Source: Verrucomicrobiota bacterium (GTDB taxonomy: Bacteria; Verrucomicrobiota; Verrucomicrobiia; Opitutales; Opitutaceae). From it: 13,383 nucleotides of DNA. Each line of letters starts with the position of its first letter. Positions within the stretch are counted from its first letter, which is position 1. The stretch lies in the NCBI GenBank assembly GCA_023433275.1, contig JAEZDN010000105.1:1-13383 (forward strand). The letters are read 5' to 3'. The notes under the pieces were generated by a model that was not told where the DNA came from, made no database searches, and saw only the letters and a list, made by a program, of their open reading frames with translations. Position numbers and translations under genes: made by a program. Shown piece by piece: positions 92-13,323 of this stretch.

Positions 92-1558
92 TCACTTCAG
101 CGCGCCGGCTCCACCGCCGCCGCCGGCCGGCGGGACCTCCTTCGCCAGGGCGATCTCTCCCTGACGGGAATAGTCGATCGCTTCCGCCAGGATGCGCGCG
201 GCTTCCTGCGGGGCGTGGAAACCCATCGAATTTTCGGCGGCGACGAAATCCAGTCGCCACTGGGCCTTGCGATGGAGGTCGCGGGCGGCCTTGAGCTGCT
301 CGTCGGTGGCGCCGGCCTTCTGCGCCGCGCCGATGGCGTGGATGAGCGCGACGGTCGCCTCCTCCGCGCGGGTGAGGAGCGCGGCATTCCGATTCTGCAT
401 GGTGAGCGCGCGCGCCATGATTTCCTTTTCCGGAATGCGGTGGCAGGTCTGGCAGGATTCGGCGACGTTCAACAGCGGGGAACGCACATGATGGTTGCTG
501 ACCTTGATGGCGCCCTCGCGCACGTAGGGCATGTGGCAGTCGGCGCAGGAAACGCCGCTGCGGGCGTGGATGCCCTGGCTCCACATCTCAAACTCGGGAT
601 GCTGCGCCTTCAGCATCTTCGCGCCACTCTCGGTGTGGGTCCAGTCGACGTGGCCGGTCTCGTTATAGTAGGCCTCCATCTGCTCGACCTTGAGGCCGTT
701 GTCCCACGGGTAGTTCACGAGCTTGTTCTTGCCCTCGAAGTTGTATTCGACGTGGCACTGCGCGCAGACCAGGGATCGCATCTCCTGGCGGGTGGCGAGC
801 AGGTTGGGCTCGTAGCTACCCTGGCGGCCGTCACGACGCCAGCGCTCGATGCTCGGGAGATGCGGCGTGGCCTCCTTGGACTCGGCCAGGGCCCTGATGC
901 CGTTGATGAATGCCGGGCGGCTCACGCGCAGGTTCATCGTCTCGGCGTCGTGGCAGTCTATGCATGACACCGGATGTGTCACCTTCTGGCGGGCCTCGGC
1001 AAACGGCAGCGGACTGATCACTTCAAAACCCTTTTGGATCTGCGCCTCGCGATGCTCACGCCCGCCGGGGATGCCGGCCGCAATGCCCGCCTCGATATAG
1101 GTGGGCAGCACCGAGGAATGGCAGTGCAGGCAGGCACCCGGCTGGTTGAAGCGGGTGACGCGTTCGGTCTCATCCTGGTCAGTGAGCATGTAGGCGTGGC
1201 CGCGCTCCTCGCGGTAATCGACGCCGAAGGGATAGCCCGCAAAGAGTGTACGGTAGAGGGGAAACTCATCGAGCCGCTGGAAGGCCTCGCTGCCGCCGTG
1301 GTTCGTGCGCTCGGTGTCCACGGTGCGCTTGTAGCTGTCGTATTGCCGCGGGTAGTTCTTTCCCCACAAGGCGGGATCCGTGGTGTTCTCGTCCACGTCC
1401 ACGACCCGGAAGACGTGCTGGGTCGCCTCGGCCTTTCGCGCCACGATGTTCTGATAGAGCATCAGGATCAGGAACGTGGCGCCGGCGGTGCCGGCGAGGA
1501 TCGCAATGAACGCCCAGGTGGCGAGGCCGTGCTGGCGGGAGGCGGAGGAGGTTTTCAT
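92..1558 (-). CDS. nrfA: Pentahaem cytochrome c nitrite reductase NrfA (ammonia-forming), CXXCH active-site variant
   Basis: 488 aa with an N-terminal signal/anchor helix. Five haem c motifs: CLHCH, CIDCH, CAQCH, CADCH, CQTCH. Long collinear resemblance to E. coli NrfA as I recall it (ERGHAY, CAQCHVEYNFEGKNK, KAQHPEFE, CADCHMP), so the catalytic Arg/Tyr/His and the Ca-site residues appear retained. Lies directly downstream of nrfH. Confidence 0.93.
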   Translation of the reverse strand: MKTSSASRQHGLATWAFIAILAGTAGATFLILMLYQNIVARKAEATQHVFRVVDVDENTTDPALWGKNYPRQYDSYKRTVDTERTNHGGSEAFQRLDEFPLYRTLFAGYPFGVDYREERGHAYMLTDQDETERVTRFNQPGACLHCHSSVLPTYIEAGIAAGIPGGREHREAQIQKGFEVISPLPFAEARQKVTHPVSCIDCHDAETMNLRVSRPAFINGIRALAESKEATPHLPSIERWRRDGRQGSYEPNLLATRQEMRSLVCAQCHVEYNFEGKNKLVNYPWDNGLKVEQMEAYYNETGHVDWTHTESGAKMLKAQHPEFEMWSQGIHARSGVSCADCHMPYVREGAIKVSNHHVRSPLLNVAESCQTCHRIPEKEIMARALTMQNRNAALLTRAEEATVALIHAIGAAQKAGATDEQLKAARDLHRKAQWRLDFVAAENSMGFHAPQEAARILAEAIDYSRQGEIALAKEVPPAGGGGGAGALK

Positions 1559-1645
1559 GACGGGAAAGACTGGTTGGTTTTCTTAGCTAAGAATGCACAC
1601 GAAGTGAGAGAAGGGGGCATCGACCCCTCGCTGCCGTTATCCCGG

Positions 1646-1708
1646 GCCGTGCGAAGGATCCAAGGGGAAGCCGCCACCCACGGCACCAGCTTGGATCCTT
1701 CGCACGGC
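1646..1708 (-). repeat. Perfect 19-bp inverted repeat (intercistronic RNA hairpin) in the nrfH-nrfA spacer
   Basis: 1646-1664 gccgtgcgaaggatccaag is the exact reverse complement of 1690-1708 cttggatccttcgcacggc, with a 25-nt loop. No U-run follows on either strand, so it is not a canonical intrinsic terminator. Confidence 0.8.
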
Positions 1709-1772
1709 TCAGGATGACGATGCAGGGGTCTGGTTTTCATTCGCGTCATTTTGTGTCCGTTCGCGGTTGAAT

Positions 1773-2249
1773 TCACTTCAGCGGACCGTGACCGACCTCG
1801 CGGTGGCAGTGCAGGCAGTCGAGCATCTTCTGCGGGTCGCCGGGGTGCGTGTTGATGCCGTCCACCAGGGCTTGGTGGCAGGTGACGCAGTTCTCCTGGA
1901 GCACCGCGATGTTCTTCTTTCGGATCATGATCGGCTCGTGGAAATCCTGCAGCGTGAAACCCTTCGAGTGCCAGAAGCCGTTCTCGGCCTTGCTGAGATA
2001 TTTCGGGATGAAGCTATGCGGCGTGTGGCAGTCGTTGCAGGTGGCGACCGCATGGTGCGGCCCCTTCTGCCAGCCATCGAACTGCTCGCGCATGATATGA
2101 CAATTCACGCACGCGGTCGGGTCGTTGGAGAAATACGACAGCCCGTGCGCGTAGGTGAAGGTGTAGCTGCCAAGACCCGCGAACAGCCCGGCCGTGGCCG
2201 TGATGGCCACCAACAGGAGCGTGCGCGTGCGCGAGGTGGGGATCTTCAT
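1773..2249 (-). CDS. nrfH: Tetrahaem cytochrome c quinol dehydrogenase NrfH (NapC/NirT family)
   Basis: 158 aa with one N-terminal TM helix. Four CXXCH motifs (CVNCH, CNDCH, CVTCH, CLHCH). Size and position immediately upstream of nrfA are typical of nrfHA operons. Confidence 0.9.
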
Positions 2250-2333
2250 GGGTCGCAGTTGGCGCTCAACCTACGCATGCCCTGCCCTCCGCCAAGCCAA
2301 CACTCGAAGTTTTTGTGCGGAACCTTCCGCCGG

Positions 2334-2567
2334 TTATTCGCGCCAAAAATTCACCGCCCAAGCCCCGTCGTTACGACGCTCCATCGACGACGCGAACCCC
2401 TCGCTCTTGAGCAATTCAATGAGTGGCGCCGGCAGGAACGGCGCCACGATCGTCACCCCCTCTCCGTCTTCGAGCGCATCCACCCGCGCGCGAATGGCCG
2501 AAAAAGGCTCCTCGCCGCGCGCGAGCACGGCCCGGATGTCGAAGGATTTGAAGCGAATCGGTTTCAT
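2334..2567 (-). CDS. DUF2249-type small protein (TusA/SirA-like fold family often found next to NO/nitrite genes)
   Basis: 77 aa. The pattern FDIR..(G)EEPF..I...V..L..GE.V.IV.PF.P.PL...L...GF......R.DG.W.V.FWR matches my recollection of DUF2249. Not HMM-verified. Confidence 0.6.
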   Translation of the reverse strand: MKPIRFKSFDIRAVLARGEEPFSAIRARVDALEDGEGVTIVAPFLPAPLIELLKSEGFASSMERRNDGAWAVNFWRE

Positions 2568-2612: not shown

Positions 2613-2626
2613 TTGATCCAAGTCAT
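2613..2626 (-). promoter_or_regulatory. FNR/CRP-family (Dnr/NnrR-type) box TTGATccaaGTCAT with a downstream -10-like TAGGGT
   Basis: 9/10 match to TTGAT-N4-GTCAA, with the shared 5' flank cgcc. The box centre at 2619.5 is 29.5 nt from a TAGGGT hexamer (2590-2585 on the minus strand). Predicted TSS is about 2578, 11 nt upstream of the DUF2249 ATG. Probably drives DUF2249-nrfH-nrfA. Confidence 0.6.
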
Positions 2627-2641: not shown

Positions 2642-4765
2642 TCACGGGCTCCAGACAAATCCCGCCTCGGGATCAAACGTTAGCACATGTTGGCGACGTT
2701 CCACCGCCGTCCAGGTTCCGGCCCACCGCCGGGAGGGAACGCCGGTGGCAGGCGGTTGCGACCATATCTCCACGCTCGCGCTCTGCGCGCCCGCCGCGAG
2801 GCGCACCCGCAGCTCGCCCACCGCCACCCCGTCGTCGGACAATCCCTTGGCCCGCACCGTGTGCGTCTCCACCCGCCCACCCGCCTCCACGCGCACCACC
2901 ACCGGTTGCCGACCCCGCGCCGCGGGCATCGCCCCGCGCATGTGCACCGGGCGCGTATCGTTGCCCGCGGCCGGCGCGACCGCCGTCGGCTCGAGCCGGT
3001 CGCCATAGGCGCGAAACGTAACAACAAACTCCGGCGCCTCCGGGGCGGGATTGCGAAAAGGTGCGTCGCTCAAACCCACCATGAGCGCCACCCCCACGCC
3101 CGCCACCGCCAGCGCCACCGACCAACCGAGAACGCGGTCACGGCCTGCGCGACTGGCCCGCCCGGGCGCGCCCGCGCCGGCGCGAAGCGAGGATGCCGCT
3201 GCCGCCAGCAAGTGGGGTCGCAACGGATCGAAATCCACATGCGCCACTCGCCGCGGGTCCGCTCGATTGGGGCGGAGCGCGGGCTCACGCGTGCCAGCCA
3301 GGCGCGCGGGCATCCAAATGTTGCCCTCCCGGCCAAAGGCTTCGCTCGAACCGCAACCGACAATGAGCACAGCGGCCGCGCCCTTCGTCATCAACCGCTC
3401 GATGAGCTTCGGCTCGACCCACCCCGCGCAGGGGACGGGCCGCACCGTGTAGCCGGGCAGGCGCCGGGCCCAGGCCACGTGGTCGAACAGCTCCCAGCCC
3501 CCGTCCCCTTGGGCACACACAAAGGCAATCGCGGGAGCCTCCCCGCGGGCCCGGGCGGTGAGAACCAATTCCTCGAGCTCCCGGCCGACGCGCCGCGCAT
3601 CGAACCAGGCCAGGCCAATTCCCTGCGTGTCGCAGGAGCCCGCACAAATGCCACAACCCACGCACCGGTCGGGATCAACCTGCGCTTGCGAGGGAAACGG
3701 CTTCCCGTCGGTTCGCGGCACCATCGTGATCGCGCCGAAGGGACAGTCGTGCGAGCAAAGCGTGCAGGCAAAGCACCTCGACACGTCCACCGCCGCCTGG
3801 AACGTCGCCCGCGGCCGCCGGCGCGCGAGCCACCACGGGATGGTGACCAAAACAATCATGCTCAGGCCGGCTGAGAGCCAGATCCCGGGTCCGCTCAGCC
3901 GCGCCGTGAGTTGCAACGGCCACAGAAACCACCAGTCCATCGAGAGCGCCGCCGGTTTCACGGCGAGTTGGGCGGGAGCCGCATTCGTGGCCGGCCAGAT
4001 GAGCGCCGCGACGATCACCGCGCCGGCCAGCCCGGCGATCAGACGCTTGTCGGGGAGCAGGTTCACCCGGCTCAGGCGCGCCAGATGCAGGGCCAGGCCG
4101 CCGGCGATGGCCAATGGCAGCGCCATGTGCAGGAAGAACACCACGAAAAACAGCAGCGAAGGCACGGTCTCATCCCGATTGAAGAGCGGCAGCATGGGCT
4201 CGCCGAACACGGGCAGCACGTCCACCGCCTTCATCGTGCCCGTGGCGACCAACTGGGCCCGCTCATCCCACACCAGCCAGTAACCGGTCCACCCGATGAA
4301 CCCGATGAGCGCGAGCATGGCGATCCCGCTCGCCCAAGCGAGCCAGCGCGAGCCGGCGAATTTCCGGGCGAACAGCATGCGCGCGGCGTGCATCAGCACG
4401 AGCAGCATGGTGAGGTCGGAGGAATAGCGATGCACGCTCCGCACGATCCCGCCGGGTGATCGCGCCCCCAGCCCTGCGAGCGACGACCACGCGGATTGCA
4501 CGCTGGCGGAATACCAGATGAGCATCAGGACGCCTGAGACCGTGGCCAGGAGCAGCATGGCGTTGGCGGCCGGCCCGAGCTGCGCCAGCGGGTTCACTGG
4601 CCGCGGCCACACGCGCTCGATCACCGTGTCGAGCCGCGCCCAGCCCGCCTCGCCCGCCGCCCACAGCCGCGCCGCCCGCACGGGCGGTGCCGGCGGCTCC
4701 GCCCCAGGCGCCGGACCTCCGCCGATGCTGTCAGCCAGCGCCTCGCAATCGGGCTCCGGATGCAT
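2642..4765 (-). CDS. Multidomain membrane redox protein: dihaem cytochrome b (bc1/b6 N-terminal type) + 2x[4Fe-4S] ferredoxin + MvhD/FlpD-like domain + TM helix + about 140-aa periplasmic domain of unknown function
   Basis: I call the start at ATG 4765 (MHPEPD...), giving 707 aa. The track ORF extends to 5278 only by running out of frame across the upstream SCO gene. Two H-x13-H pairs sit in TM helices (RSVHRYSSDLTMLLVLMHAARM and FFLHMALPLAIAGGLALHLARL), plus a WTGYWLVWDERA motif, as in cytochrome b. Ferredoxin motifs: CFACTLCSHDCP and CVGCGICAGSC. MvhD-like stretch: AFVCAQ...VPCAGWVEPKLIERLMTKGAAAVLIVGCGS...REGN. About 7 TM helices by eye. Confidence 0.75.
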   Translation of the reverse strand: MHPEPDCEALADSIGGGPAPGAEPPAPPVRAARLWAAGEAGWARLDTVIERVWPRPVNPLAQLGPAANAMLLLATVSGVLMLIWYSASVQSAWSSLAGLGARSPGGIVRSVHRYSSDLTMLLVLMHAARMLFARKFAGSRWLAWASGIAMLALIGFIGWTGYWLVWDERAQLVATGTMKAVDVLPVFGEPMLPLFNRDETVPSLLFFVVFFLHMALPLAIAGGLALHLARLSRVNLLPDKRLIAGLAGAVIVAALIWPATNAAPAQLAVKPAALSMDWWFLWPLQLTARLSGPGIWLSAGLSMIVLVTIPWWLARRRPRATFQAAVDVSRCFACTLCSHDCPFGAITMVPRTDGKPFPSQAQVDPDRCVGCGICAGSCDTQGIGLAWFDARRVGRELEELVLTARARGEAPAIAFVCAQGDGGWELFDHVAWARRLPGYTVRPVPCAGWVEPKLIERLMTKGAAAVLIVGCGSSEAFGREGNIWMPARLAGTREPALRPNRADPRRVAHVDFDPLRPHLLAAAASSLRAGAGAPGRASRAGRDRVLGWSVALAVAGVGVALMVGLSDAPFRNPAPEAPEFVVTFRAYGDRLEPTAVAPAAGNDTRPVHMRGAMPAARGRQPVVVRVEAGGRVETHTVRAKGLSDDGVAVGELRVRLAAGAQSASVEIWSQPPATGVPSRRWAGTWTAVERRQHVLTFDPEAGFVWSP

Positions 4766-4883
4766 GTGACCACTCACGCCCCGCCTCCCGCCCTTCCCGG
4801 ACCGGAGGGTTCTCGCGAGGCCGTTCCGCAAGCGGGGCTTCGCCGGGGCGCGGCCCGGCGGTCGACAGCATGCCGCGCGGGAT

Positions 4884-5843
4884 TCATTCGCGCAGGAGGT
4901 GCAGCAGGCCCTCGCGCAGCCAGGCCCGGTGGCGCGGGTCGAGCGTGAAGCGGAAGGCGATGTCGCCCTCGCGATCCAGCAGGAGGAACAGGTTGGCGTG
5001 GTTGAGCACGCCGGTCTCAGGATCACGCGTGACGGAAAACTGGAGACGCTTGAGCAGATCGCGCATCTCGTCGGGGCGCTCACCGTTGACGTAGCGAAAC
5101 TCGGGAAACTCCAGTCCCTGCGCCGTAGCCATGGCGTCCATGATTTCGGTGGTCTCGTATTCCGGGTTGAGCGAGAGCGCGACCACGCGCAGACCCGCGC
5201 GGTCGGCGGCGGGCAATTCGGCGAGCACGGCACGCAACTCCTTGAAGATCTCCGGACAGGCAGTGGAACAGGCCGCATACACGCCCGTCACGAGCACAAC
5301 CTGACCGCGCAGATCGGCGAGCCGGAAGGCCGTGCCCTTCTGGTCCACGAGCGGCTGGTCAGGCACGGCAAGTCGCACCCGGATGCGATCGCCGGGAAAC
5401 GGCGGCAGGACGTCCGCCGCGCGGTCGGCTTGCGCATACGCCACCAGCCCGGCCACCGCGGCCGCAACCGTCGCCACGCCAGCGGCGGCGGCACCGAGGT
5501 GGCGGAGCCATAGCGCCGGCGACCTGAGCTGCCTGAGCGTATCGCGCCAGAGCACGCCGGCCACGAGCACGACCATGACGGGCTCGAGCAACATGATGCT
5601 GACGGCGGCCCACGACATGCCGCCGGTGCGCGGGTCGCCCTGGTAACACCATTGTTGGAAATCCCGCACGAAGCCGCCCAGCGCGCCGTCACCCGTCGGC
5701 CCGAAGATCGTGAGCAGGAGAAACGCCTCGTAGGCCGCGAGCGCCGAACCGAGGAACACCAACAGACCCGGTCCGGTGAAGAAGCGCGTGCCGGCGGACG
5801 TGGCGGCCGGCGGGGCGTCGGGGGCGTGGGCGGGAATGAGCAT
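4884..5843 (-). CDS. SCO1/SenC-family thiol-disulfide/copper chaperone with an N-terminal three-TM membrane domain
   Basis: 319 aa. Thioredoxin-fold core carries CSTAC (CxxxC) and the downstream conserved His (VLNHANLFLLLDREGDI). Three hydrophobic helices fall within the first ~140 aa. ATG at 5843. Confidence 0.75.
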   Translation of the reverse strand: MLIPAHAPDAPPAATSAGTRFFTGPGLLVFLGSALAAYEAFLLLTIFGPTGDGALGGFVRDFQQWCYQGDPRTGGMSWAAVSIMLLEPVMVVLVAGVLWRDTLRQLRSPALWLRHLGAAAAGVATVAAAVAGLVAYAQADRAADVLPPFPGDRIRVRLAVPDQPLVDQKGTAFRLADLRGQVVLVTGVYAACSTACPEIFKELRAVLAELPAADRAGLRVVALSLNPEYETTEIMDAMATAQGLEFPEFRYVNGERPDEMRDLLKRLQFSVTRDPETGVLNHANLFLLLDREGDIAFRFTLDPRHRAWLREGLLHLLRE

Positions 5844-5910
5844 GAGGATATTGTGATCTCAGGAATTGATCATCGCGGATCCAAACCAGCCCACCCCGCC
5901 CGGCCGGGCA

Positions 5911-5969
5911 CCCCTCTTGATGGAGGGGACTTCGGCTAAATTGCCCGGATTCCCCTCCATGAAGAGGGA
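5911..5969 (-). repeat. Imperfect 59-bp palindrome (nested hairpins) in the 190-bp gap between HCO subunit I and the membrane SCO gene
   Basis: Arm 5911-5929 cccctcttgatggagggga versus arm 5951-5969 tcccctccatgaagaggga: 17/19 complementary. Core tggagggga/tcccctcca is perfect over 9 bp. Each arm is also self-complementary (cccctc...gagggg). No U-tract follows. Confidence 0.65.
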
Positions 5970-6033
5970 TGGCGCGCAGCGCCGGGGGGTGTGGGGAAAT
6001 CGCACGATGTGGTGGGATTGTTGAATTCCGCCA

Positions 6034-7758
6034 TCACCGCACGGGCCACACGTCGGCCAGCGCCTTCCAGTTGGCGAAGTAGTACACCGCGAAGCACGCG
6101 AGGAACACGAAGGTGAGCACGATCGTGCCCTTGGTGGCCGAGTGGTTGTCCGCCAGCGAACCCGCCTTCGTGCCGGCGAGCGCGGGCGGCATGCCCCAGT
6201 CGGCCATCGGGCGGCCATGGTTCTTCTCGCCGAAGAGGAGCGTGCCGACGCAGAGCAGCACGAAGGCGAGCAGGCCGAGGAAGGCCAGCACGCCGCCAAT
6301 GCCCAGCGCACCCAGCCAGAGATGGGCGGCCGGGCCGTAAACGCCCTGCGCATCGATGTCCCAACTGCGGCGCGAAACCCCCATCGAGCCCGCAAAGGAC
6401 ATGCCGAATGACAGCAGCACGATGCCGCCGCCGAAGATCCAGGGCTGGAGGCGTGCGAGCCCGCGCCAGATGAAGTCGCGCTGGAAGATCAGCGGGATGA
6501 CGTAGTAAGCCAGCGCCATGAAGGCCAGCGTGGTGCCGCCGACCACGGTGACGTGGAAGTGTCCCGGGATGCGCAGCGTGTTGTGCGCGATGATGTTGAT
6601 CTGCTGCGTGCCGAGCGTGACGCCCGTGATGCCGCCGAGGAAACCAAAGATGATCACCGAGAGGACGGTGCCCGAGAGAGCCGGGTTGCGCCACGGAAGG
6701 GCCACCACCCAACCGAAGAGACCGCGCGTGTAGCCCTTCTCGCGCATGGCGATCTCGACGCCGGCCGGCACGGTGAAACCGTGGACCATGGACGCGAGCA
6801 CCGCGAGATACATGGCGTAGGAGGTGTTCCAGATCTTCCAGGCCGAGCCGACGGCCGGGTCCACGAGCAGGTGGTGGGCCGACGCGATGTTGATGAAGAG
6901 AATGTAGAGCGCGAAGGCCGTGCGGCAGACCGCCTCGTTGACCGGGCGCGCGCCCAGGATGACGTTCGACAGCAGGTACCAGACCGCGACCATGGCGCAG
7001 ACATTGACCTGTTGCGACTGGTGACCGAGGCCCCACCAGATGATGCGATACCAGATCGGATCGGGCTGGCCGATCCAGCCCATCGAGTAGGCAAACGTCG
7101 GGATCATCACGATCGCGCCGTGCAGGAGGGTGACGACCGCGATGATGGCGGCGGCCAGCGCGCCGAAGGTGACGATCGGCATCGAGCCCTCGTAGGCACG
7201 GTCGCGCTTGGCCACGTAAAGGGTGGCGAAGAAGTTGAAGACGCCCACCAGCGTGCCCACGGCGACGAGGATGATGCCGAGGTAGAAGGCCGGGTGCGCC
7301 AGCAGCGGCAGGTAGGACGTCATCAGCACGTCGGCCTGGCCGGCGATGATGACCCAGTCCACCATCACGGCGCCGACCGCCATGAGGCCGAAGCCCACCC
7401 AGGCCACCTTGCGCGAGAACAGCCGCGCGTTGAGCGGCGTGGTGCAGGCGAAGTAGAGGATCGCGACCTCGAAGAAGAGGATCCAGAAGATGAGCATGTT
7501 GATGCCGTGAAAGGTCAGCACGCGGTAGAACCAGTCCACGGGCAGGAGGTGGACGGTTTGCCAGCGCGTGAGCGCGAGCAGCAGCGCGGCGATGCCGCCG
7601 AGCAGGAGGAAGACGATGCCGACGACGGCGTGCAGCTTGATGAAGCGCTGGGCGTCGAGGCAGACGCCGAGGCCGGTGGTGGCGCAGACGCGCTTCGGCG
7701 TGTCGGGGGCGGCCAGCGAGTGCGGACCGGCGGGCAGGGTGGCGGGGGCAGAGGTCAT
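6034..7758 (-). CDS. Heme-copper oxidase superfamily subunit I, B-family-like architecture, lacking the cross-link tyrosine (candidate nitric oxide reductase catalytic subunit)
   Basis: 574 aa, about 13 TM helices. All six canonical His are present: H84 (TFHG), H246 (WWGLGH), H295/H296 (SAHHLL), H400/H402 (PGHFH). The spacings 84-246-295-400 closely parallel the T. thermophilus ba3 numbering as I recall it (72-233-282-384). The position of the His-linked Tyr (GHPxVY) reads GHQSQQ, i.e. Gln250. Confidence 0.85.
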   Translation of the reverse strand: MTSAPATLPAGPHSLAAPDTPKRVCATTGLGVCLDAQRFIKLHAVVGIVFLLLGGIAALLLALTRWQTVHLLPVDWFYRVLTFHGINMLIFWILFFEVAILYFACTTPLNARLFSRKVAWVGFGLMAVGAVMVDWVIIAGQADVLMTSYLPLLAHPAFYLGIILVAVGTLVGVFNFFATLYVAKRDRAYEGSMPIVTFGALAAAIIAVVTLLHGAIVMIPTFAYSMGWIGQPDPIWYRIIWWGLGHQSQQVNVCAMVAVWYLLSNVILGARPVNEAVCRTAFALYILFINIASAHHLLVDPAVGSAWKIWNTSYAMYLAVLASMVHGFTVPAGVEIAMREKGYTRGLFGWVVALPWRNPALSGTVLSVIIFGFLGGITGVTLGTQQINIIAHNTLRIPGHFHVTVVGGTTLAFMALAYYVIPLIFQRDFIWRGLARLQPWIFGGGIVLLSFGMSFAGSMGVSRRSWDIDAQGVYGPAAHLWLGALGIGGVLAFLGLLAFVLLCVGTLLFGEKNHGRPMADWGMPPALAGTKAGSLADNHSATKGTIVLTFVFLACFAVYYFANWKALADVWPVR

Positions 7759-7781: not shown

Positions 7782-8333
7782 TTATTCGACGAAGATCTTG
7801 CCGGTCATGGCGTGGTGCCCGATGCCGCAGAATTCATTGCAGACGATGGTGAACTCGCCCTTCGAGGTGGGCGTGAGCGTGAGCACGTGGTCGTACCCGG
7901 GTACGGCCTGGAAGTTCATGTTGAGGGGCTGCAGGGAAAAACCGTGCTGCAGGTCGAGGGCGGAGAGATGGATGCGGTAGGTCTCGCCCAAGCGCAGACG
8001 CAGGGCCGGATACCACTGCCACATCCGTCCGATCAGGTAGGCGTCGCCGCCGGGGGGTGGCTCCACGATCGGCAGCTCCGCGGCGAAGGCGTTTCCCGTG
8101 GGATTGACGAACGTGCCGACGCGGTTGGACTCGACGAACTTCTCGGTGCGCGCGAGGAAGTCCGCGGGTGTGACCGCGTAGGCCTCGCCGGAGCTGTTCT
8201 GTTTACCGCGAAAATGCCAGTACGGCATCATCAGCGACATCACGAAGCACCAGAGGATGGCGACGCCGAGCCAGAGCTTTTCATGGCCGGCCGGCGCGTG
8301 GAACCAGGGAGAGGTGAGAGGGCGAAGGCTCAT
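7782..8333 (-). CDS. HCO subunit II with an intact CuA centre (single-TM, ba3-like)
   Basis: 183 aa, one N-terminal TM helix, cupredoxin domain. Complete CuA ligand set: H130 (DLQHGF) and C165-N-E-F-C169-G-I-G-H173-H-A-M176 (CxExCGxxHxxM). Ends 23 nt upstream of subunit I. Confidence 0.88.
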   Translation of the reverse strand: MSLRPLTSPWFHAPAGHEKLWLGVAILWCFVMSLMMPYWHFRGKQNSSGEAYAVTPADFLARTEKFVESNRVGTFVNPTGNAFAAELPIVEPPPGGDAYLIGRMWQWYPALRLRLGETYRIHLSALDLQHGFSLQPLNMNFQAVPGYDHVLTLTPTSKGEFTIVCNEFCGIGHHAMTGKIFVE

Positions 8334-8342: not shown

Positions 8343-8492
8343 TCAGGGCAGTTGCGCCGGCTTGATGAACAGGAGTTCGATCCAGCCCCACGCGGTGTAG
8401 GACAGGAACGGAATGACGACGCCGAGGGCGAGGAGCAGCCAGGGGTTGTCCAGGAGCTTCTGCCAGGGGTGGATCTTGGGTTCGTTTTTCAT
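8343..8492 (-). CDS. 49-aa single-TM protein, positional analogue of ba3 oxidase subunit IIa (not in the supplied ORF track)
   Basis: My translation: MKNEPKIHPWQKLLDNPWLLLALGVVIPFLSYTAWGWIELLFIKPAQLP. Its ATG overlaps the TGA of the upstream gene (ATGA, 8489-8492). Its stop lies 9 nt before the subunit II ATG. One clear hydrophobic helix. The order small-II-I mirrors cbaD-cbaB-cbaA. Confidence 0.6.
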   Translation of the reverse strand: MKNEPKIHPWQKLLDNPWLLLALGVVIPFLSYTAWGWIELLFIKPAQLP

Positions 8493-9904
8493 GGTGCAGG
8501 GTAAGAGGAAGGAGCGCGCCACGTCGCGAGGCCGCGGAGCATGATCGCGAGGAAGAGCAGGCCGCCGATCACGGCCACGAGCCCCCCGAGGCCCATCACG
8601 CCGAGGCCCACGTATTCGCCGAGCGAGCGGACGTGCTGTTCGGCGCCGTATTGCTTGCGGGCCAGGCCGAACGCGCCGGCCAGCGCAAAGCCCAGTCCGA
8701 ACACCGCCTGCCCGCCGCCGAAGAGCGCGAGTTGCCAGCGGATGAGGCGATCGGACGCACCGGCGGCGCGGGGCGAGGCTTCCCGGCTGAAATCATAGGC
8801 CGCCGCCATGAGCGCGAGCGTCACCGCGCCGATCGCACAGTGGTAGTGGCCGGGGACCAGCGTGCTCGATCCGCGGATAAACGCGCCGAGCACGAACCCG
8901 AGCACCGTCAGGAGGGCACTCCCGGCGAAACCGACGAGACGCCAGCGCCCCTCCGCCGCGCGCTCCGCCCAGTGCAGCGCCACGTGCCTGATCCCGAGGC
9001 CGAGCACAATCAGCACCACGGGAAAGATCGTCCAACGCATGAGTTGGGTCGCGATCTCGGAATACGCCGGGCGTGATGTCCCGCCCCACGCCACGACGGG
9101 CATGATCAACTGCGGCAGCACCAGCGCGCAAAGGAGCCAGCGGATCGCGGCCGGCGAGACCACATTGCGACCTGACCAGCGTCGCAACAGCCAGAGCCAG
9201 AGCCCCAGCATGAGCGCGACGTTGCCGACCTGCATGACGTGTCCCCCGCCCCACGCCACCAGCTCGTAATAGCCGATGGCCGGCAGTCCGGGCAGCGTCG
9301 AGCGCCAGGCTGCGGTGAAGGTCGCCAACGCGATCAGGTGCGCCGCCGCCGAGGCGCGCAGGGCGACAAGTGAGTCATCGGACAACCGGGTCGAGGGGAG
9401 CGACGGCACCGCCAGCGCCCCCGCGAGATAAAGCCCGCTGCCGGCGAACCAGGCGACGAGGCCGGCGAGGAACACGGGGTGATCCACCACCGGCACATAG
9501 TTCGCGAGAATCGGCTGCGCGCCCGGCATCACCGCTCCCGCCAGCAGGCCGAGGATGCCAAATCCCGCCAGCGCGATCGAAGCGACGGTGAGGCCGCGCG
9601 GGACCCGCGAGCCCACGGCCCACGCGAGATAAGCCAGCGTGCCCGCCTGGAACCACACGACAATGGCCAGATCCACGTGCACGACGAGCGCGCGCTTGAA
9701 GAACAACGGGTCGGTGAACAACCAGCCCAGGAACGGCAGCCGCCCGACCACGAGCATCAGGGACAACAATCCCGCGAGCACGAGGCTGCCGATGCCGAAG
9801 GCAAACCAGCCTCGCGCCGCGCCGGGAAAATGACTGGAGGCCATCGCCGTCGTCGTCGGGACGAAACGCGGGCGAAGCGCGGGAGCGGCGGCCGGGGTGG
9901 GCAT
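8489..9904 (-). CDS. Divergent HCO subunit I paralogue retaining the haem ligands but lacking the helix-VII His-His CuB ligands
   Basis: 471 aa, about 12 TM helices. Block-wise similarity to the 574-aa subunit I: KRALVVHVDLAIVVW / YRVLTFHGINMLIFW; YVPVVDHPVFLAG / YLPLLAHPAFYLG; WGGGHVMQVGNV / WGLGHQSQQVNV; PGHYH..G.VTLALMAAAY / PGHFH..GGTTLAFMALAYY; FGGG...FAG.FGLARK / FGGG...FAGSMGVSRR. There is no HH dipeptide anywhere in the protein; the aligned position reads V271-A272. Confidence 0.75.
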   Translation of the reverse strand: MPTPAAAPALRPRFVPTTTAMASSHFPGAARGWFAFGIGSLVLAGLLSLMLVVGRLPFLGWLFTDPLFFKRALVVHVDLAIVVWFQAGTLAYLAWAVGSRVPRGLTVASIALAGFGILGLLAGAVMPGAQPILANYVPVVDHPVFLAGLVAWFAGSGLYLAGALAVPSLPSTRLSDDSLVALRASAAAHLIALATFTAAWRSTLPGLPAIGYYELVAWGGGHVMQVGNVALMLGLWLWLLRRWSGRNVVSPAAIRWLLCALVLPQLIMPVVAWGGTSRPAYSEIATQLMRWTIFPVVLIVLGLGIRHVALHWAERAAEGRWRLVGFAGSALLTVLGFVLGAFIRGSSTLVPGHYHCAIGAVTLALMAAAYDFSREASPRAAGASDRLIRWQLALFGGGQAVFGLGFALAGAFGLARKQYGAEQHVRSLGEYVGLGVMGLGGLVAVIGGLLFLAIMLRGLATWRAPSSYPAP

Positions 9905-9939: not shown

Positions 9940-9953
9940 TTGACGCGCATCAA
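9940..9953 (-). promoter_or_regulatory. FNR/CRP-family (Dnr/NnrR-type) box, perfect TTGATgcgcGTCAA when read on the minus strand
   Basis: Plus strand reads TTGACgcgcATCAA, with the gcc flank conserved on the minus strand. It overlaps the azurin stop codon. The centre at 9946.5 is 29.5 nt from a TAAAAA hexamer (9917-9912, minus strand). Predicted TSS is about 9905, adjacent to the ATG at 9904. Confidence 0.65.
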
Positions 9954-10468
9954 GGCTTCGGCGCGACGATCAGTTTGCCCTTCATCAACGCGGCATGGCC
10001 GGGAAATGTGCAGATGAACGGATACTCGCCGGGGGCATCCGGCGCGCTGAACTCGACGGTGTCGCTCTCATTGGGTCCGAGCAGCTTCGTGTGCGCGATG
10101 ATCCTGCCCGCGTCCGCGGGCACGTACTCCGGCGCGCGCGCCGCGGCGGCCTGCGCGAGCGCCAGCACCCCTCCATCGGGCATCGGCACCAGGAGCACCC
10201 AATTGTGTCCCATCGCCTGCTTGGGCATGCGACCAATGTTCTTCAGGGTGACTCGGATCTTCTCGCCGACGTGGGCGCGAATCTCGGTCACATTGAACTT
10301 CATGGTGTCGTCCGCCGTGATCACGACGGCCTTGACGCCGTCGACCGGGGCCGCGGCCGGGGTTGCAGCGACCGGAGCGGTGGCGGGAGCTTCGGATTTT
10401 CCGCAACCGGCGAGCAACAAGGCGGTGCCGGCCACGAGCGGAAGGATGAGGGTGGGCATGGATTTCAT
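9950..10468 (-). CDS. azu: Azurin-type blue copper protein, lipoprotein-anchored
   Basis: Near-collinear with P. aeruginosa azurin as I recall it: MKFN, MGHNWVL, RIIAHTKLLGP..S.TVEF, FICTFPGHAALMKGKL. Type-1 Cu ligands His/Cys/His/Met are all present. Lipobox LLAGC after a signal peptide, followed by an Ala/Pro-rich linker. I prefer the ATG at 10468 (MKSMPTL) over the GTG at 10477. Confidence 0.9.
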   Translation of the reverse strand: MKSMPTLILPLVAGTALLLAGCGKSEAPATAPVAATPAAAPVDGVKAVVITADDTMKFNVTEIRAHVGEKIRVTLKNIGRMPKQAMGHNWVLLVPMPDGGVLALAQAAAARAPEYVPADAGRIIAHTKLLGPNESDTVEFSAPDAPGEYPFICTFPGHAALMKGKLIVAPKP

Positions 10469-10503: not shown

Positions 10504-10517
10504 TTGATGCGGGTCAA
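10504..10517 (-). promoter_or_regulatory. FNR/CRP-family (Dnr/NnrR-type) box TTGATgcggGTCAA with a -10-like TAGGGT
   Basis: Perfect 10/10 match, with flanks gcc...gc shared with the box at 11601. It overlaps the stop codon of the upstream gene. The centre at 10510.5 is 29.5 nt from TAGGGT (10481-10476, minus strand). Predicted TSS is about 10469, adjacent to the azurin ATG at 10468. Confidence 0.65.
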
Positions 10518-10945
10518 GCTGCCGGCGTTTCCTTGCAGCAGGCCGACTGGCAGACTCCGTCGAGCAGCCGGATCTCGCGGTGGGCGACGCCGCGCATCCG
10601 CTCGCACAATTCCCCGACCTGCGCGACGCGATCCGCCGCGCTCAGCGCGGGATCGGCGACCTGGGCCCAGATGAGCGCCTCGAGCAGCGCTTGCTCCAGC
10701 GTGGCAAAGTACGGGCGCAGCGGGTTGCAATGACACCGCTTCGGCAACGAATCGGGGTTCGCGGCAACCGTCCCATCCGGGGGTTGCGCTGCCAGCACGT
10801 CGTCGAGCGTGTGATCGAACAGGTGGACCAGGATGTCGGGACTCGCCAGCGGCGTGGCCGGTTTCTCCAGGCGTAGCAGGGCCTCCCACCGCGCGCGGAT
10901 CTCTGGCCGCCGCGGTTCGAGGAGTGGGCGCAGGGAACTGCTCAT
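10514..10945 (-). CDS. Hypothetical cytoplasmic protein with CHC and CxxxCC motifs
   Basis: 143 aa, no signal peptide or TM helix. Cysteines sit in KRCHCNP and GVCQSACC. Helical, Arg/Leu-rich N-terminus (RPEIRARWEALLRLE). 27 nt downstream of the preceding gene. I do not confidently recognise a family. Confidence 0.5.
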   Translation of the reverse strand: MSSSLRPLLEPRRPEIRARWEALLRLEKPATPLASPDILVHLFDHTLDDVLAAQPPDGTVAANPDSLPKRCHCNPLRPYFATLEQALLEALIWAQVADPALSAADRVAQVGELCERMRGVAHREIRLLDGVCQSACCKETPAA

Positions 10946-10972
10946 GGCATGAGGGAAGCGCGGGTGCGGCGC

Positions 10973-11566
10973 TCAGTGTTGGTGGCCGAATTCATGGGTG
11001 GCAGGACGAAGCGCCGACGCATGCAGGGCTTCGTAATAGTGGATGTATTCGACGTAGGCGGCGACATAGCCCCGCCCGGCCTCGACGTTGTGGTCAGCGT
11101 GGGCCCGGGCCTCGCGCGCCCGGTCAAACCGCTGGGTCAAACCGGCGGCGATGCGTTGCTGCAGCTCCCGCACCAGTTCGTCCGCGCGACCGGTTTCCAG
11201 GGATTGGTCGGCCGCAGCGATGGCCGGATCGATCGCGCCGGCCGGCTTGAGTCCGGTGAAGGCCACCCCCTCGCCAGCGCGGTGGATGCGCACGAGCGTC
11301 TCGAAGAAGTAACGCTCGGCCAGTTCGGCCGCGGTCGGCGACAGACCTCGCACCTCGAGGGTCTGCGCGAAAGCGGTGCGGATCGCGGTCTCGTCCTCCG
11401 CACGCACCCACCTGAGCACGCGCGCGACGTCACCCTCCGCGATCGCCTGCCGGGCGGCTTCTATGACCGGGCCGTCGAGGCTGTCGCAGTGGGCACGCGC
11501 AAGGGGAACGAGGGCCAGCGTCGCCAGAAAGAGGCCAGCCAGCAGGGATCGGGTCGTCTGGTTCAT
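10973..11566 (-). CDS. Secreted protein with mature N-terminus HCDSLDGPV and a His-rich C-terminus (DUF6448-like, recalled from memory)
   Basis: Start called at ATG 11566 (MNQTTRSLLAGLFLATLALVPLARA|HCDSLDGPVI), giving 197 aa. Conserved-looking core YFFETLVRIHRAGEGV.FTGLKP. C-terminus HASALRPATHEFGHQH. The track start at 11614 is a TTG lying inside the regulatory box. Confidence 0.6.
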   Translation of the reverse strand: MNQTTRSLLAGLFLATLALVPLARAHCDSLDGPVIEAARQAIAEGDVARVLRWVRAEDETAIRTAFAQTLEVRGLSPTAAELAERYFFETLVRIHRAGEGVAFTGLKPAGAIDPAIAAADQSLETGRADELVRELQQRIAAGLTQRFDRAREARAHADHNVEAGRGYVAAYVEYIHYYEALHASALRPATHEFGHQH

Positions 11567-11600
11567 GGCGCCACGATGACACGTCGGGGCGCATTCCGCC

Positions 11601-11614
11601 TTGATGCAGGTCAA
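11601..11614 (-). promoter_or_regulatory. FNR/CRP-family (Dnr/NnrR-type) box TTGATgcagGTCAA
   Basis: Perfect 10/10 match. The 19-mer gccTTGATgcaGGTCAAgc differs at a single position from the one at 10501-10519. The centre at 11607.5 is 29.5 nt from a weak hexamer CATCGT (11578-11573, minus strand) and exactly 41.5 nt from the A of ATG 11566. Confidence 0.65.
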
Positions 11615-11662
11615 GCGTTGGCCGCGCGGGTGGCGCGCGCCGGCGGGCGGAGTGGCGGCGGA

Positions 11663-12448
11663 TTACCGCCCGCTGGTCACGACGGCTTGCGCCGCCTCGT
11701 CGAGGCCGCCGCGCAGGCCGTTGCGCTGGTGGACGATCTCGCCCTCGGGGTTGAGAATGGTGATGAGGTTGGAGTGCGCGAACATGCCGTCGGCCTCCTG
11801 CTTGAACTTCACGCCCAGGAGCGCGGCGAGTTCGCGCACGGCATCGTCATCACCGTGCAACAGGGTCCATTGGTCATCGAGCTGGCGTTCCGCCCGGAAT
11901 TTCGCGAGCGCGGCCGGCGTGTCGCGCGCGACGTCGAACGTCACCAGCACGAGCGCGGCGCGCGTGCGGATCTCCGCGGGCAGTTTCGCCTGGATGGCAT
12001 GCATGTCGGTCAGCAACAGCGGGCACGCGTAGCCGCAGGAGGCGAAGAACATCGTCAGCACCACCGGCCGGCCGCGCAGGGAGCTGAGAGCGAAGGGCCG
12101 GCCGCGGTCATCGGTGAAACCGACGTCGAGTTGATAGAGCGATTCGGCGCTGAAATCCCCGCTCTTCAATGCGGGATTCTCGAGCTCGGCGCAGCAGGCG
12201 TCCGGCTTTTTGTCGGCGGTTTCCTCGACCGCGCAGCAGGCGGCGGGCTTGGGCGCGTCCCCCTGGGCGCAGCAAGCGGCCGTCCCGGACTTGTCCGCGC
12301 AGCACGCTGCCTGGTCCGTTTTACCGTCGGAGCAGCCGCAGGCCGACTGCGGCTTGGCGTCCGGCGTCGCGCAGCAGGCGGCTGGCTTTTCATGCGCCAT
12401 CAGGCCGGCGGACAGGAGGAGGGAAAGCAGGGCGAGACTCGTTTTCAT
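11663..12448 (-). CDS. SCO1/SenC-family copper chaperone with a secreted N-terminal (A)CCA-repeat cysteine-rich tail
   Basis: 261 aa with a signal peptide (MKTSLALLSLLLSAGLMA|HEK). 12 Cys in about 65 residues: five ACCA units plus one CGC. SCO core carries FFASCGYACP (CxxxC) and the conserved His (MFAHSNLITILNPEGEI). Its ATG overlaps the stop of the upstream FGE-like gene (ATGA). Confidence 0.85.
   Translation of the reverse strand: MKTSLALLSLLLSAGLMAHEKPAACCATPDAKPQSACGCSDGKTDQAACCADKSGTAACCAQGDAPKPAACCAVEETADKKPDACCAELENPALKSGDFSAESLYQLDVGFTDDRGRPFALSSLRGRPVVLTMFFASCGYACPLLLTDMHAIQAKLPAEIRTRAALVLVTFDVARDTPAALAKFRAERQLDDQWTLLHGDDDAVRELAALLGVKFKQEADGMFAHSNLITILNPEGEIVHQRNGLRGGLDEAAQAVVTSGR
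12185..12391 (-). repeat. Degenerate in-frame tandem repeat encoding the (A)CCA cysteine pairs
   Basis: The plus strand shows gcgcagca(g/a/c)g... recurring at about 12188, 12231, 12266, 12298 and 12369, with a related gagcagccgcagg at about 12330. Spacing is roughly 33-43 nt. Confidence 0.7.
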
Positions 12449-13323
12449 GGAATCGATTGGGCGCAGCGGAAGCCGAGCGAGGTGGTGGTGTTGTTGGCCT
12501 TGAGGGAGGAGCGCAGCGCCGAGCGCATGTAGGCGGCATAGTCGCTCGTCTCCTTGCTGCCCGCGGCGCCGGCGCCGCAGAACAGGTCGCGCTCGAGGCC
12601 GCTGTCGGCGCGGGATTCGCCGGTGACCATGGCGGTGTTGAAGTCATCGACCCATTCCCACACGAGGCCGTGCAGGCCGCGCGCGCCGTGGAGGTTGGTC
12701 CGGGCCGTGGCGACCGAGGGCAGCACGTCTGGCACCGGCCGCGCGAGCCAGGCGTAAAGATCGCGGTTGAACTCCGGTTCGTCCTTCCCCGCCGGCGTCG
12801 TGTAACCGGCCGCGGCGGCGAGTTCCCATTCGGCGGTGCTCGGCAGGCGCTTGCCGGCCCAGCGCGCGTAGGCGCGCGCCGCAAACCACGACACGCGCAC
12901 GACCGGGGCGTCGGGTGGGGCGCCGGCGCCGGGCTCGAGGTCGTCGGACCAGTGCTCGAGGTAGGAGGCGTCGGCAAAGAGCCGGCTGACGGCGGAGCGG
13001 CGCCATTTCGGGTTTTCGCGCACGAAGGCGAGGAACTCGGCGTTCGTCACCGGGAGGACATCCAGTTCGAAGGCCGGCACGGGCACTTGCTCGGGATCGC
13101 GCAGGGACCGTTGCACCGGTTCATAAATGCCCGCCGGAATCACGACCGACCCGCGAAGGGATGAATCGTCGATTCCGGCGCCGGGATGCTGGATATCCGC
13201 TCCGCCGCCCAAGGCGCCGAGCAGGAACAGCCCCAGCCCGACCCATGCGCGATTGAAACCGGAGGGGCGCCCGGCGGGCGGGCGACAGGGGGCCGGGATG
13301 GTGCGTGGCGCGGTGGCAAACAT
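12445..13323 (-). CDS. Formylglycine-generating-enzyme (FGE/SUMF1) domain protein, NirV-like, with an N-terminal signal-anchor
   Basis: FGE-sulfatase family hallmarks: VTNAEFLAFV, VSWFAARAYARWAGKRLPSTAEWELAA, GLVWEWVDD, and C-terminal TSLGFRCAQ. Hydrophobic segment AWVGLGLFLLGALGG. I prefer the ATG at 13323 (MFATAP, 292 aa) over the TTG at 13371. The upstream promoter is probably outside the window. Confidence 0.8.
   Translation of the reverse strand: MFATAPRTIPAPCRPPAGRPSGFNRAWVGLGLFLLGALGGGADIQHPGAGIDDSSLRGSVVIPAGIYEPVQRSLRDPEQVPVPAFELDVLPVTNAEFLAFVRENPKWRRSAVSRLFADASYLEHWSDDLEPGAGAPPDAPVVRVSWFAARAYARWAGKRLPSTAEWELAAAAGYTTPAGKDEPEFNRDLYAWLARPVPDVLPSVATARTNLHGARGLHGLVWEWVDDFNTAMVTGESRADSGLERDLFCGAGAAGSKETSDYAAYMRSALRSSLKANNTTTSLGFRCAQSIP

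Follow-up and report, generated by a model that had tools for sequence, protein, structure and literature searches.

We found that a 13,383-nucleotide (nt) stretch of contig JAEZDN010000105.1 (referred to here as the window) is most of a nitrite- and nitric oxide (NO)-reduction island from a freshwater Opitutaceae bacterium close to Oleiharenicola; close homologues of its proteins carry the names Opitutaceae, Lacunisphaera, Oleiharenicola, or Nibricoccus. We observed 14 identifiable genes, a conserved box ahead of several of them, a six-gene core kept across phyla, and, in the catalytic subunit of that core, the active-site signature of the eNOR family of NO reductases. The account that we favor, and consider reasonably probable, is that the copper nitrite reductase NirK makes NO, that eNOR reduces NO to nitrous oxide (N2O), and that NrfHA forms a parallel branch, with the genes arranged as a modular island in one FNR/DNR-type regulon.

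The DNA is ~67% GC, and every long open reading frame (ORF) whose composition is of coding type is on the minus strand, with transcription running from 13323 to 92. The G+C content at third codon positions (GC3) is 0.76 to 0.94 in the coding frames. An earlier note, made from the sequence alone, had proposed 14 co-directional genes between 92 and 13323 along with their domain identities; the arrangement was as described, and nearly all of the identities were borne out by Pfam or NCBIfam profile matches. From 13323 down, the genes encode an FGE-sulfatase protein, an SCO protein, a DUF6448 protein, a 143-amino-acid (aa) protein, an azurin-like protein, a paralogue of heme-copper oxidase (HCO) subunit I, and a 49-aa protein. 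The second half encodes CuA subunit II, subunit I, an SCO protein with a transmembrane (TM) domain (TM-SCO), a fusion of cytochrome b and iron-sulfur (FeS) domains, a DUF2249 protein, NrfH, and NrfA.

The eNOR-type oxidase and its six-gene core

The six genes of the core are as follows.
8489..9904, minus strand: HCO subunit I paralogue, 471 aa, 12 TM helices, weak COX1 match
8343..8492, minus strand: 49-aa single-TM protein, called as a gene on three contigs
7782..8333, minus strand: CuA-type subunit II, 183 aa, with CNEFCGIGHHAM (PF00116)
6034..7758, minus strand: HCO subunit I, eNOR type, 574 aa (PF00115, E=1e-61)
4884..5843, minus strand: TM-SCO, 319 aa, with a polytopic membrane domain at the N terminus followed by a SCO1/SenC domain (PF02630, E=6e-13)
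2642..4765, minus strand: cytochrome b-FeS fusion, 707 aa (Pfam; cytochrome b6, E=2.5e-17)

Subunit I aligns with the ba3 oxidase of Thermus thermophilus (E ~1e-43) and keeps all six metal-ligand histidines (H84, H246, H295, H296, H400, and H402, aligned to ba3). At the position of the cross-linked tyrosine (Tyr237 of ba3) it has glutamine, with GHQSQQVN in place of GHPIVYFW, and GHx[SA]QQ[VI]N was present in 78/78 subunit I orthologues recovered from genomes. The residue at this position is Tyr in oxygen reductases, Asn in sNOR and bNOR, Gln in eNOR, and Asp in gNOR (PMC8756737, Table A4). The subunit II motif, C-x-E-x-C-x3-H-x2-M, is likewise kept in orthologues. Judged by its active-site signature, the oxidase is an eNOR-type NO reductase, and the earlier proposal of an NOR-like HCO with a CuA subunit stands.

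The nearest nonbacterial relatives of subunit I found in an exhaustive search are archaeal. A haloarchaeal HCO with the motif HGTQQIN is 40% identical to it, and enzymes from Rhodothermales metagenome-assembled genomes (MAGs) are 62 to 64% identical. Relatives from Hodarchaeales and Thermoproteota have HxxQYxN, in which the Tyr is kept. The archaeal and other relatives P0243, P0245, P0247, and P0263 (36 to 44% identical), which have HxxQYxN and so combine the catalytic Tyr with eNOR-like flanking Gln/Asn, may represent a transition from B-family oxidases to eNOR.

Two other NO reductase families were rejected. The sNOR family, first suggested by the SenC linkage, was ruled out by Gln instead of Asn at the diagnostic position, the Asn lying two residues further on. 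The gNOR family has Asp for one CuB His and a CuA-less subunit II, and it was ruled out because here none of the three CuB His is replaced and the CuA motif is complete.

We also weighed whether the enzyme is a B-family oxygen reductase for microaerobic growth, with the island a low-oxygen regulon in which the nitrogen-oxide genes are incidental. FNR-type boxes control oxidases too in many bacteria, subunit I is publicly annotated as cytochrome c oxidase subunit I, and the nearest archaeal relatives with HxxQYxN retain the Tyr. However, the catalytic Tyr is replaced by Gln in every one of the 78 orthologues, and the regulators and neighbors of the core are of NO type. Moreover, the only characterized member of the eNOR family, that of Rhodothermus marinus, is described in PMC11214002 as reducing NO and not O2. 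We therefore regard an oxygen reductase as very improbable. Since eNOR-type enzymes are publicly labeled as oxygen reductases, such organisms are overlooked as N2O sources.

A scan of one genome per species gave at least 543 relatives, of which the best 80 loci were analyzed: 38 from Verrucomicrobiota and 42 from other phyla (Myxococcota, Rhodothermales/Balneolaceae, Leptospiraceae, Calditrichota, Planctomycetota, Lentisphaeria, and Pseudomonadota), with at least eight phyla in all. We searched these loci by tblastn with all island proteins and counted presence only where a locus was long enough to judge; loci with at least 9 kb on both sides (17 verrucomicrobial and 12 other) are called fully covered. 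The six genes hold their order and strand. Among evaluable loci, CuA subunit II was present in 76/76, TM-SCO directly downstream of subunit I in 68/68, the fusion in 59/59, the 49-aa protein directly upstream of subunit II in 71/74, and the paralogue in 59/66. The co-occurrence of paralogue, fusion, and NOR-like subunit anticipated in the earlier note is thus strong. Cultured relatives with the paralogue are Oleiharenicola lentus and Lacunisphaera limnophila. Seven loci (L034, L037, L038, L044, L048, L049, and L063) have the 49-aa protein, subunit II, subunit I, SCO, and fusion genes and no paralogue; therefore, the paralogue is not strictly required.

The paralogue is 28% identical to subunit I (E=9e-15). 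Both heme-ligand His positions, in helix II and in an HxH pair, and the first CuB His are kept, with a Gln three residues on from the latter, and the HH pair is always missing; H76, H222, Q225, H353, and H355 are each conserved at 96 to 100% in 57 orthologues. The AlphaFold2 model had a predicted local distance difference test (pLDDT) score of 79.9, and its top 44 Foldseek matches in the PDB were all HCO or NOR subunit I. Because the heme-ligand His are kept and the HH pair is missing across these orthologues, the paralogue is probably a two-heme protein without the canonical binuclear site, one that is under selection and not decaying.

The fusion consists of a b6-like cytochrome b, two extra TM helices, a 2x[4Fe-4S] domain, an FlpD/MvhD-like domain, a TM helix, and a C-terminal beta domain. 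It aligns with cytochrome b6 across helices A to D, and its four heme His (H112, H126, H213, and H227) and eight Cys, enough for two [4Fe-4S] clusters, are invariant. H2-P3-x2-D6-C7 and H608-M609 are also invariant. In the MvhD-like domain, residue 478 is Gly in the window and Cys in 14/21 orthologues, and two other Cys are kept in 17/21; whereas the [4Fe-4S] motifs do not vary, the [2Fe-2S] site could therefore be missing or nonessential. Helix counting would place the FeS domains in the cytoplasm and the C-terminal beta domain in the periplasm. The AlphaFold2 model of the fusion was weak (pLDDT 56; predicted template modeling score 0.38), and its secondary-structure layout alone was used.

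The start of the fusion at 4765 agrees with the public gene call, and its public names are generic only. An 878-aa reading of the ORF at 2642-5278 was rejected, since its first ~170 codons overlap the TM-SCO gene and have the wrong GC3 pattern. Membership in a bc1 or b6f complex was also rejected, as the window encodes neither a Rieske protein nor a cytochrome c1/f. No similarity to subunit IV was seen in residues 232-327. The loop between helices five and six, DWWxLWP, is PEWY-like and invariant; a search of solved structures with this segment found nothing, and its reading as a PEWY-like Qo loop is only a lead.

The ba3 oxidase has a small extra one-TM subunit (subunit IIa) encoded upstream, and the 49-aa protein, by its size and position, is probably the equivalent. 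TM-SCO is a probable CuA assembly factor. A heme o synthase gene lies within 10 kb in 32/80 related loci.

It is conceivable, though we hold it to be doubtful, that the six-gene core forms a hitherto unrecognized multisubunit eNOR comprising subunits I, II, and IIa-like, the two-heme paralogue, and the fusion, which would connect the complex directly with either the quinone pool or a donor in the cytoplasm. If this were true, NO reduction would be carried out by a self-contained electrogenic respiratory complex kept across at least eight bacterial phyla. The almost invariable presence of the paralogue and the fusion across phyla suggests that an NO reductase common in the environment has either subunits that have been missed or an electron route not yet known.

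A shared box and the regulators near the core

The shared box, TTGAY-N4-RTCAA, is a palindrome of FNR/DNR type. The window holds 5 copies versus 0.48 expected, and 0/200 shuffles reached 5.
11601..11614: box TTGATGCAGGTCAA, centered 41.5 nt upstream of the DUF6448 start; site also in L004
10504..10517: box TTGATGCGGGTCAA, upstream of the azurin gene; likewise in L004, L029, L032, and L033
9975..9988: imperfect box with one mismatch, located in the azurin gene at its 3' end and 35 nt from the next box
9940..9953: box TTGACGCGCATCAA, heading the six-gene core, with its center 42.5 nt ahead of the paralogue start
2613..2626: imperfect box with one mismatch, reading ATGACTTGGATCAA on the minus strand, upstream of DUF2249-nrfH-nrfA

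Paired boxes like those ahead of the paralogue are also found in L005, L007, and L041, and L006 and L020 have exact boxes ahead of DUF2249. On an 84-kb metagenome contig (L001) that carries the exact subunit I protein, there are 7 boxes versus 0.70 expected, the two extra ones upstream of ywiC and nirK. The earlier note had stated that the genes share one box type. The box is real, but it precedes 4 of the 13 junctions (those at DUF6448, azurin, the paralogue, and DUF2249), and the fifth copy is inside the azurin gene. Co-regulation through this box is supported by its conservation. In 24/28 verrucomicrobial loci, a copy is found no more than 250 nt upstream of the paralogue, and in relatives the box also precedes ctaB, RIC, ywiC, nirK, a porin gene, azurin, and DUF2249. 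In verrucomicrobial loci, we counted 78 exact boxes in 598 kb, versus 1 in 631 kb from other phyla.

The distance from box to gene start recurs at ~41 nt in relatives, matching the 41.5 to 42.5 nt for DUF6448 and the paralogue. A spacing of ~41 nt is that of class II FNR promoters, counted to the transcription start; the same spacing to the start codon would imply leaderless mRNAs. A TAAAAA stretch lies 8 to 13 nt ahead of the paralogue ATG.

It is true of the window that it contains no regulator, as had been noted, but a Crp/Fnr gene lies within 10 kb of the core in 11/17 fully covered verrucomicrobial relatives. On reading its sequence, the Crp/Fnr protein near the core in relatives has no obvious FNR-type N-terminal Cys cluster. 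In 10/12 fully covered nonverrucomicrobial loci, a divergent Rrf2-family (NsrR-like) regulator adjoins the operon. With the box nearly absent outside Verrucomicrobia and a divergent Rrf2 gene there, we conclude that the core has been rewired between regulator families. That both regulator families have NO- or oxygen-sensing members, together with the links to nirK/nirS and RIC, supports an NO-related function. The Rrf2 gene is found ~200 to 2000 nt upstream on the opposite strand in L044, L051, L052, L055, L057-L059, L061, and L062, and its placement is the same in L065, L067, L073, L077, L082, and L083.

An NO-related function could also be nitrosative-stress defense, in which eNOR, NrfA, and the accessories would detoxify NO from neighbors or chemistry and would not serve energy-conserving respiration. 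RIC (Fe-S repair) genes bear the same box in relatives, the core is under regulators of the Rrf2 family, to which NsrR belongs, in other phyla, and NrfA enzymes, the CXXCH type of Campylobacter jejuni included, are known to protect against NO. However, the NO-producing NirK belongs to the same regulon, and in 13/29 fully covered loci (10/17 plus 3/12) the core is accompanied by NirK or NirS. Furthermore, the related verrucomicrobial isolate Verruconatronum alginivorum grows by nitrite respiration to N2O (PMC13274419). For these reasons, we think defense an unlikely primary role.

Two nitrite-reducing branches in a modular island

The genes that bear on the source of NO lie at the two ends of the window.
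12445..13323, minus strand: FGE-sulfatase family protein (NirV-like), 292 aa (PF03781, E=4e-32)
11663..12448, minus strand: SCO1/SenC chaperone with a Cys-rich (ACCA-repeat) N-terminal extension, 261 aa (PF02630, E=3.5e-17)
2334..2567, minus strand: DUF2249 protein, 77 aa (PF10006, E=3e-14), first gene past the box and before nrfHA
1773..2249, minus strand: NrfH, tetraheme quinol dehydrogenase/membrane anchor, 158 aa (TIGR03153, 162.5 bits; cutoff, 134.2)
92..1558, minus strand: NrfA, pentaheme nitrite reductase, 488 aa (PF02335, E=4e-136), with five CXXCH motifs

The earlier note had listed nirK as absent, which proved to be a window-edge effect. The exact subunit I protein is found on the 84-kb contig and on a 13.4-kb contig (L002), of which the window is the reverse complement. 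The window's contig stops 60 nt upstream of the FGE gene. On the 84-kb contig, ywiC-nirK lies directly upstream of FGE; the proteins of this contig are 100% identical to the window's, and the shared 13.3 kb is identical except for 4 mismatches beside the 84-kb contig's own end. There, NirK occupies 2876-4387 and FGE occupies 4436-5314, so that nirK ends 48 nt upstream of the FGE gene, and a ywiC-like gene precedes nirK. The NirK protein has 503 aa and a C-terminal cytochrome c domain, and it scored 356 bits against TIGR02376 (cutoff, 296). The FGE gene is thus immediately downstream of a copper nitrite reductase gene, the nirK-nirV arrangement, as seen on the 84-kb contig but not on that of the window. 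The order ywiC-nirK-FGE-SCO-DUF6448-p143-azurin-paralogue, continuing through subunit I, is found again in L004, an independent MAG of Oleiharenicola. The final ~33 nt of the window (13351-13383) diverge from the 84-kb contig, which is either a contig-end artifact or a strain breakpoint. Both assemblies end no more than ~150 nt past nrfA. This suggests strain-variable or repeated DNA at both island borders (window 1-91 and 13351-13383).

In fully covered verrucomicrobial loci, the FGE gene occurs with NirK in 10/17 and with the Cys-rich SCO gene in 12/17, and in the window it overlaps the latter by 4 nt. Both SCO proteins (PF02630 for each) have CxxxC and a distal His, as CGYAC...H and CSTAC...H. 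The ACC-repeat N terminus of the first SCO looks like a metal-binding extension. It consists of six or seven ACC(A)/CC repeats with Lys/Pro-rich linkers between them (window 12169-12400), and the ACC repeats are the DNA direct repeats D5 (12189-12390). The Cys-rich extension is kept with nirK-nirV in 12/17 relatives.

The first heme motif of NrfA is CLHCH, where the alignment shows CWTCK in Wolinella succinogenes NrfA. The enzyme is therefore not of the Lys-ligated CXXCK type, and its earlier assignment to the CXXCH type was correct; the CXXCH clade is already known (PMC6349771). The inclusion of NrfHA in a single unit with the oxidase, also proposed earlier, did not hold. In fully covered loci, nrfA lies within 10 kb of the core in 4/17 verrucomicrobial and 0/12 other cases, and its order and orientation vary: where present, nrfHA is upstream, downstream, or on the opposite strand relative to the core. 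Other genes vary similarly. NirK is near the core in 10/17 verrucomicrobial and 1/12 other fully covered loci, NirS in 0/17 and 2/12, DUF2249 in 11/17 and 0/12, azurin in 3/17 and 1/12, and RIC in 6/17 verrucomicrobial loci. Over all 80 loci, 15/38 verrucomicrobial loci and 0/42 from other phyla have DUF2249 close to the core. The genes beyond the six-gene core are lineage specific. Because the core is fixed and the rest is variable, the island is a mosaic of modules and not one unit. There are five modules: ywiC-nirK-nirV-SCO, DUF6448 with the 143-aa gene, the lipoprotein azurin, the six-gene eNOR, and DUF2249-nrfH-nrfA.

These data bear on the model of the earlier note, in which NrfA ammonification is the core, NO is a by-product of NrfA that the azurin-fed HCO removes, and there is no dedicated NO-forming enzyme. 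In its favor, nrfHA is co-directional with the module, stands behind the box-preceded DUF2249 gene, and is near the module in the 4/17 verrucomicrobial loci mentioned above. However, nirK-nirV is adjacent, immediately upstream, and NirK is a dedicated NO-forming enzyme. The six-gene core occurs without nrfA in 13/17 verrucomicrobial and 12/12 other fully covered loci, and the position and orientation of nrfHA are not fixed. In V. alginivorum, which has NirK, eNOR, and NrfAH, nitrite was respired to N2O, NH3 was not detected, and the NrfAH branch appeared inactive (PMC13274419). This fits a NirK-eNOR route and speaks against an NrfA-centered one, and we consider the NrfA model improbable.

The favored account, with NirK and eNOR in series and NrfHA in parallel, would work as follows. 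When O2 is low and nitrite or NO is present, the units would be switched on by an activator of the Crp/Fnr family encoded outside the window. NirK would convert nitrite to NO in the periplasm, and the eNOR complex would reduce NO to N2O, with azurin or a cytochrome c supplying CuA with electrons. The two SCO proteins and NirV would mature the copper centers. NrfA enzymes may also consume NO or hydroxylamine; here, NrfHA, fed by quinol through NrfH, would convert nitrite, and possibly NO or hydroxylamine, to ammonium in a parallel ammonifying or detoxifying branch. Among the least certain steps, the paralogue may be a heme-bearing extra membrane subunit or an assembly scaffold. With low confidence, we suggest that the fusion could be the module's own link to the quinone pool, its b hemes joining a periplasm-side quinol site to the cytoplasmic FeS clusters.

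Several points weigh against this account. For this organism, the model rests on sequence evidence. Assignment to eNOR was made from the diagnostic residue, the CuA subunit, and the haloarchaeal relatives. There is no ctaA or ctaB in the window, though eNOR uses a heme a derivative. If the FeS domains of the fusion are cytoplasmic as predicted, they could not by themselves deliver electrons to a periplasmic CuA. No box lies directly ahead of TM-SCO, the fusion, nrfH, or nrfA, and no Crp/Fnr regulator was found in the window or within 10 kb upstream on the 84-kb contig. Finally, the ~33-nt mismatch and the contig end 60 nt upstream of FGE mean that the window could come from a strain variant without nirK.

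On the favored account, one regulon spans the NO/N2O branch (NirK and eNOR) and the ammonium branch (NrfHA), that is, nitrogen loss versus nitrogen retention. The cultured species O. lentus and L. limnophila make this choice testable.

Three genes between the first SCO gene and the core make up the rest of the island.
10973..11566, minus strand: DUF6448 secreted protein ("HCD" protein), 197 aa (PF20046, E=4e-58)
10514..10945, minus strand: 143-aa cytoplasmic Cys-containing protein
9950..10459, minus strand: azurin-like blue-copper lipoprotein (PF00127, E=5e-14), with lipobox LAGC and a CTFPGH-x3-M type 1 Cu site

The mature N terminus of the DUF6448 protein, after the signal peptide, is H-C-D, and a role as a copper binder is only a guess. 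DUF6448 is near the core in 1/38 verrucomicrobial loci, and in 0/17 and 0/12 of the fully covered ones. The 143-aa protein had no match in Pfam or NCBIfam and contains CHC and C-x3-CC motifs; its homologues are near DUF2249/nrfA in 9/38 verrucomicrobial loci, and it may be a redox or NO-related accessory. The azurin-like protein scored 94.8 bits against TIGR02695, under the cutoff of 105.1, and has the type 1 Cu ligand motif. It probably carries electrons in the periplasm to NirK, to the CuA subunit, or to both. Its start is ambiguous (GTG 10477, ATG 10468, or ATG 10459), and ATG 10468 would set the box center 42.5 nt upstream, as in other units. In most Opitutaceae relatives, a porin-like gene takes the place of DUF6448, the 143-aa gene, and azurin. 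This gene (weak Alginate_exp match) is box preceded and was found at L008:6527-7729, L036:6573-7775, L020:4294-5529, and in 10 more loci.

The 13 junctions measure, in transcriptional order, -4, 96, 27, 54, 45, -4, 9, 23, 190, 118, 74, 84, and 214 nt. The earlier description of short or overlapping junctions is only partly right: three exceed 100 nt, and two of these hold strong hairpins.
5886..5994, minus strand: imperfect inverted repeat with 50-nt arms, in the 190-nt subunit I/TM-SCO spacer (5844-6033), z = -4.3
1635..1719, minus strand: palindrome with 39-nt arms, in the 214-nt nrfH-nrfA spacer (1559-1772), RNA fold z = -6.7

The core of the 5886-5994 repeat (~100 nt) is ~90% identical at the same position in another Opitutia genome (L020:11705-11914), a higher conservation than that of the spacer around it; possible explanations are a structured RNA, a processing site, and a mobile repeat. 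In the window, nrfH and nrfA are 214 nt apart, versus ~47 nt in L008 (estimated from match coordinates), and a 27-nt piece of its palindrome recurs upstream of the paralogue in L012. The palindrome is probably an inserted element resembling a repetitive extragenic palindrome (REP) or miniature inverted-repeat transposable element (MITE). A 73-aa ORF at 1555-1776 in this spacer was rejected as coding: its GC3 is 0.62 versus ~0.87 for its neighbors, it matches no family, and it overlies the palindrome. A scan of the window with Rfam matched no family. A sigma-70 scan of the window gave 1 promoter-like site versus 1.2 expected, and terminator-like matches were mostly intragenic.

Comparison with known systems

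The eNOR family, the nirK-nirV pair, the CXXCH NrfA clade, and FNR-type control are already known. The island shares with the eNOR family as described (Hemp and Gennis 2008; Murali et al. 2024, PMC11214002) a subunit I that derives from the B family and has Gln for the cross-linked Tyr, a CuA-type subunit II, and, in relatives, SCO and heme o synthase genes in or beside the operon. It differs in that, in this subfamily, the fusion is always present and the paralogue usually so, neither of which is treated in the main text of PMC11214002, in that the window is without ctaA, and in that NO reduction is predicted here from sequence. The sNOR cluster norSY-senC-orf1 of ammonia oxidizers (PMC4940428) likewise has a CuA-type NOR-like HCO, a SenC/SCO gene, and an extra membrane ORF, but it has Asn at the Tyr position where the window has Gln, and the two are separate HCO families. 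The T. thermophilus ba3 oxidase (PDB 1EHK/1XME), with its one-TM subunit II, is among the closest solved structures, only 7deg_A (a heme-copper terminal oxidase) scoring slightly above it for subunit I; unlike the window's enzyme, ba3 retains the His-Tyr cofactor and reduces O2.

The earlier note had called the combination undescribed as a unit, which is overstated: the eNOR family has been described (PMC11214002), and a 2026 preprint on Ferrigenium straubiae lists an operon and cytochrome b-FeS genes (bioRxiv 10.64898/2026.01.22.701106). The common operon of that preprint consists of eNOR II, eNOR I, heme o synthase, sco1, and a "scaffold protein," and the F. straubiae operon itself has, like the window, eNOR II, eNOR I, sco1, and a gene with cytochrome b and FeS domains, along with the "scaffold protein of unknown function." Our paralogue may be this eNOR scaffold protein. 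The preprint calls the cytochrome b-FeS genes "rather unusual," whereas here the fusion was in 59/59 evaluable loci from at least eight phyla, and it reports a further variant with FAD/NADH domains that is absent here. What is new is the near-universal pairing of this eNOR subfamily with a heme-ligand-retaining HCO paralogue and a cytochrome b-FeS fusion.

The box resembles that of the DNR/NnrR/FNR regulons of denitrifiers, in which TTGAY-N4-RTCAA precedes nirK, nor-type, and accessory genes, often ~41 nt from the start; here, however, the regulator is outside the window, and the nearby Crp/Fnr protein in relatives is without an obvious N-terminal Cys cluster. As in known nirK-nirV clusters (Jain and Shapleigh 2001; PMC4770552), an FGE-sulfatase-family gene is directly downstream of nirK, and NirK has a C-terminal cytochrome c domain, as reported for Verrucomicrobia (PMC4770552). 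Unlike in those clusters, a Cys-rich SCO gene is added, a ywiC-like gene stands ahead, and one regulon also takes in eNOR and nrfHA. Dual NirK and NrfA reducers (Shewanella loihica; Intrasporangium calvum, PMC6349771; V. alginivorum, PMC13274419) likewise have both nitrite reductases in one genome, and V. alginivorum has eNOR too. Its three systems are at widely separated locus tags, whereas in this island, as in L008 and L020, they adjoin one another and have the box in common. Also new is that, in some Opitutaceae, eNOR and the two nitrite-reducing branches are contiguous and linked by the box.

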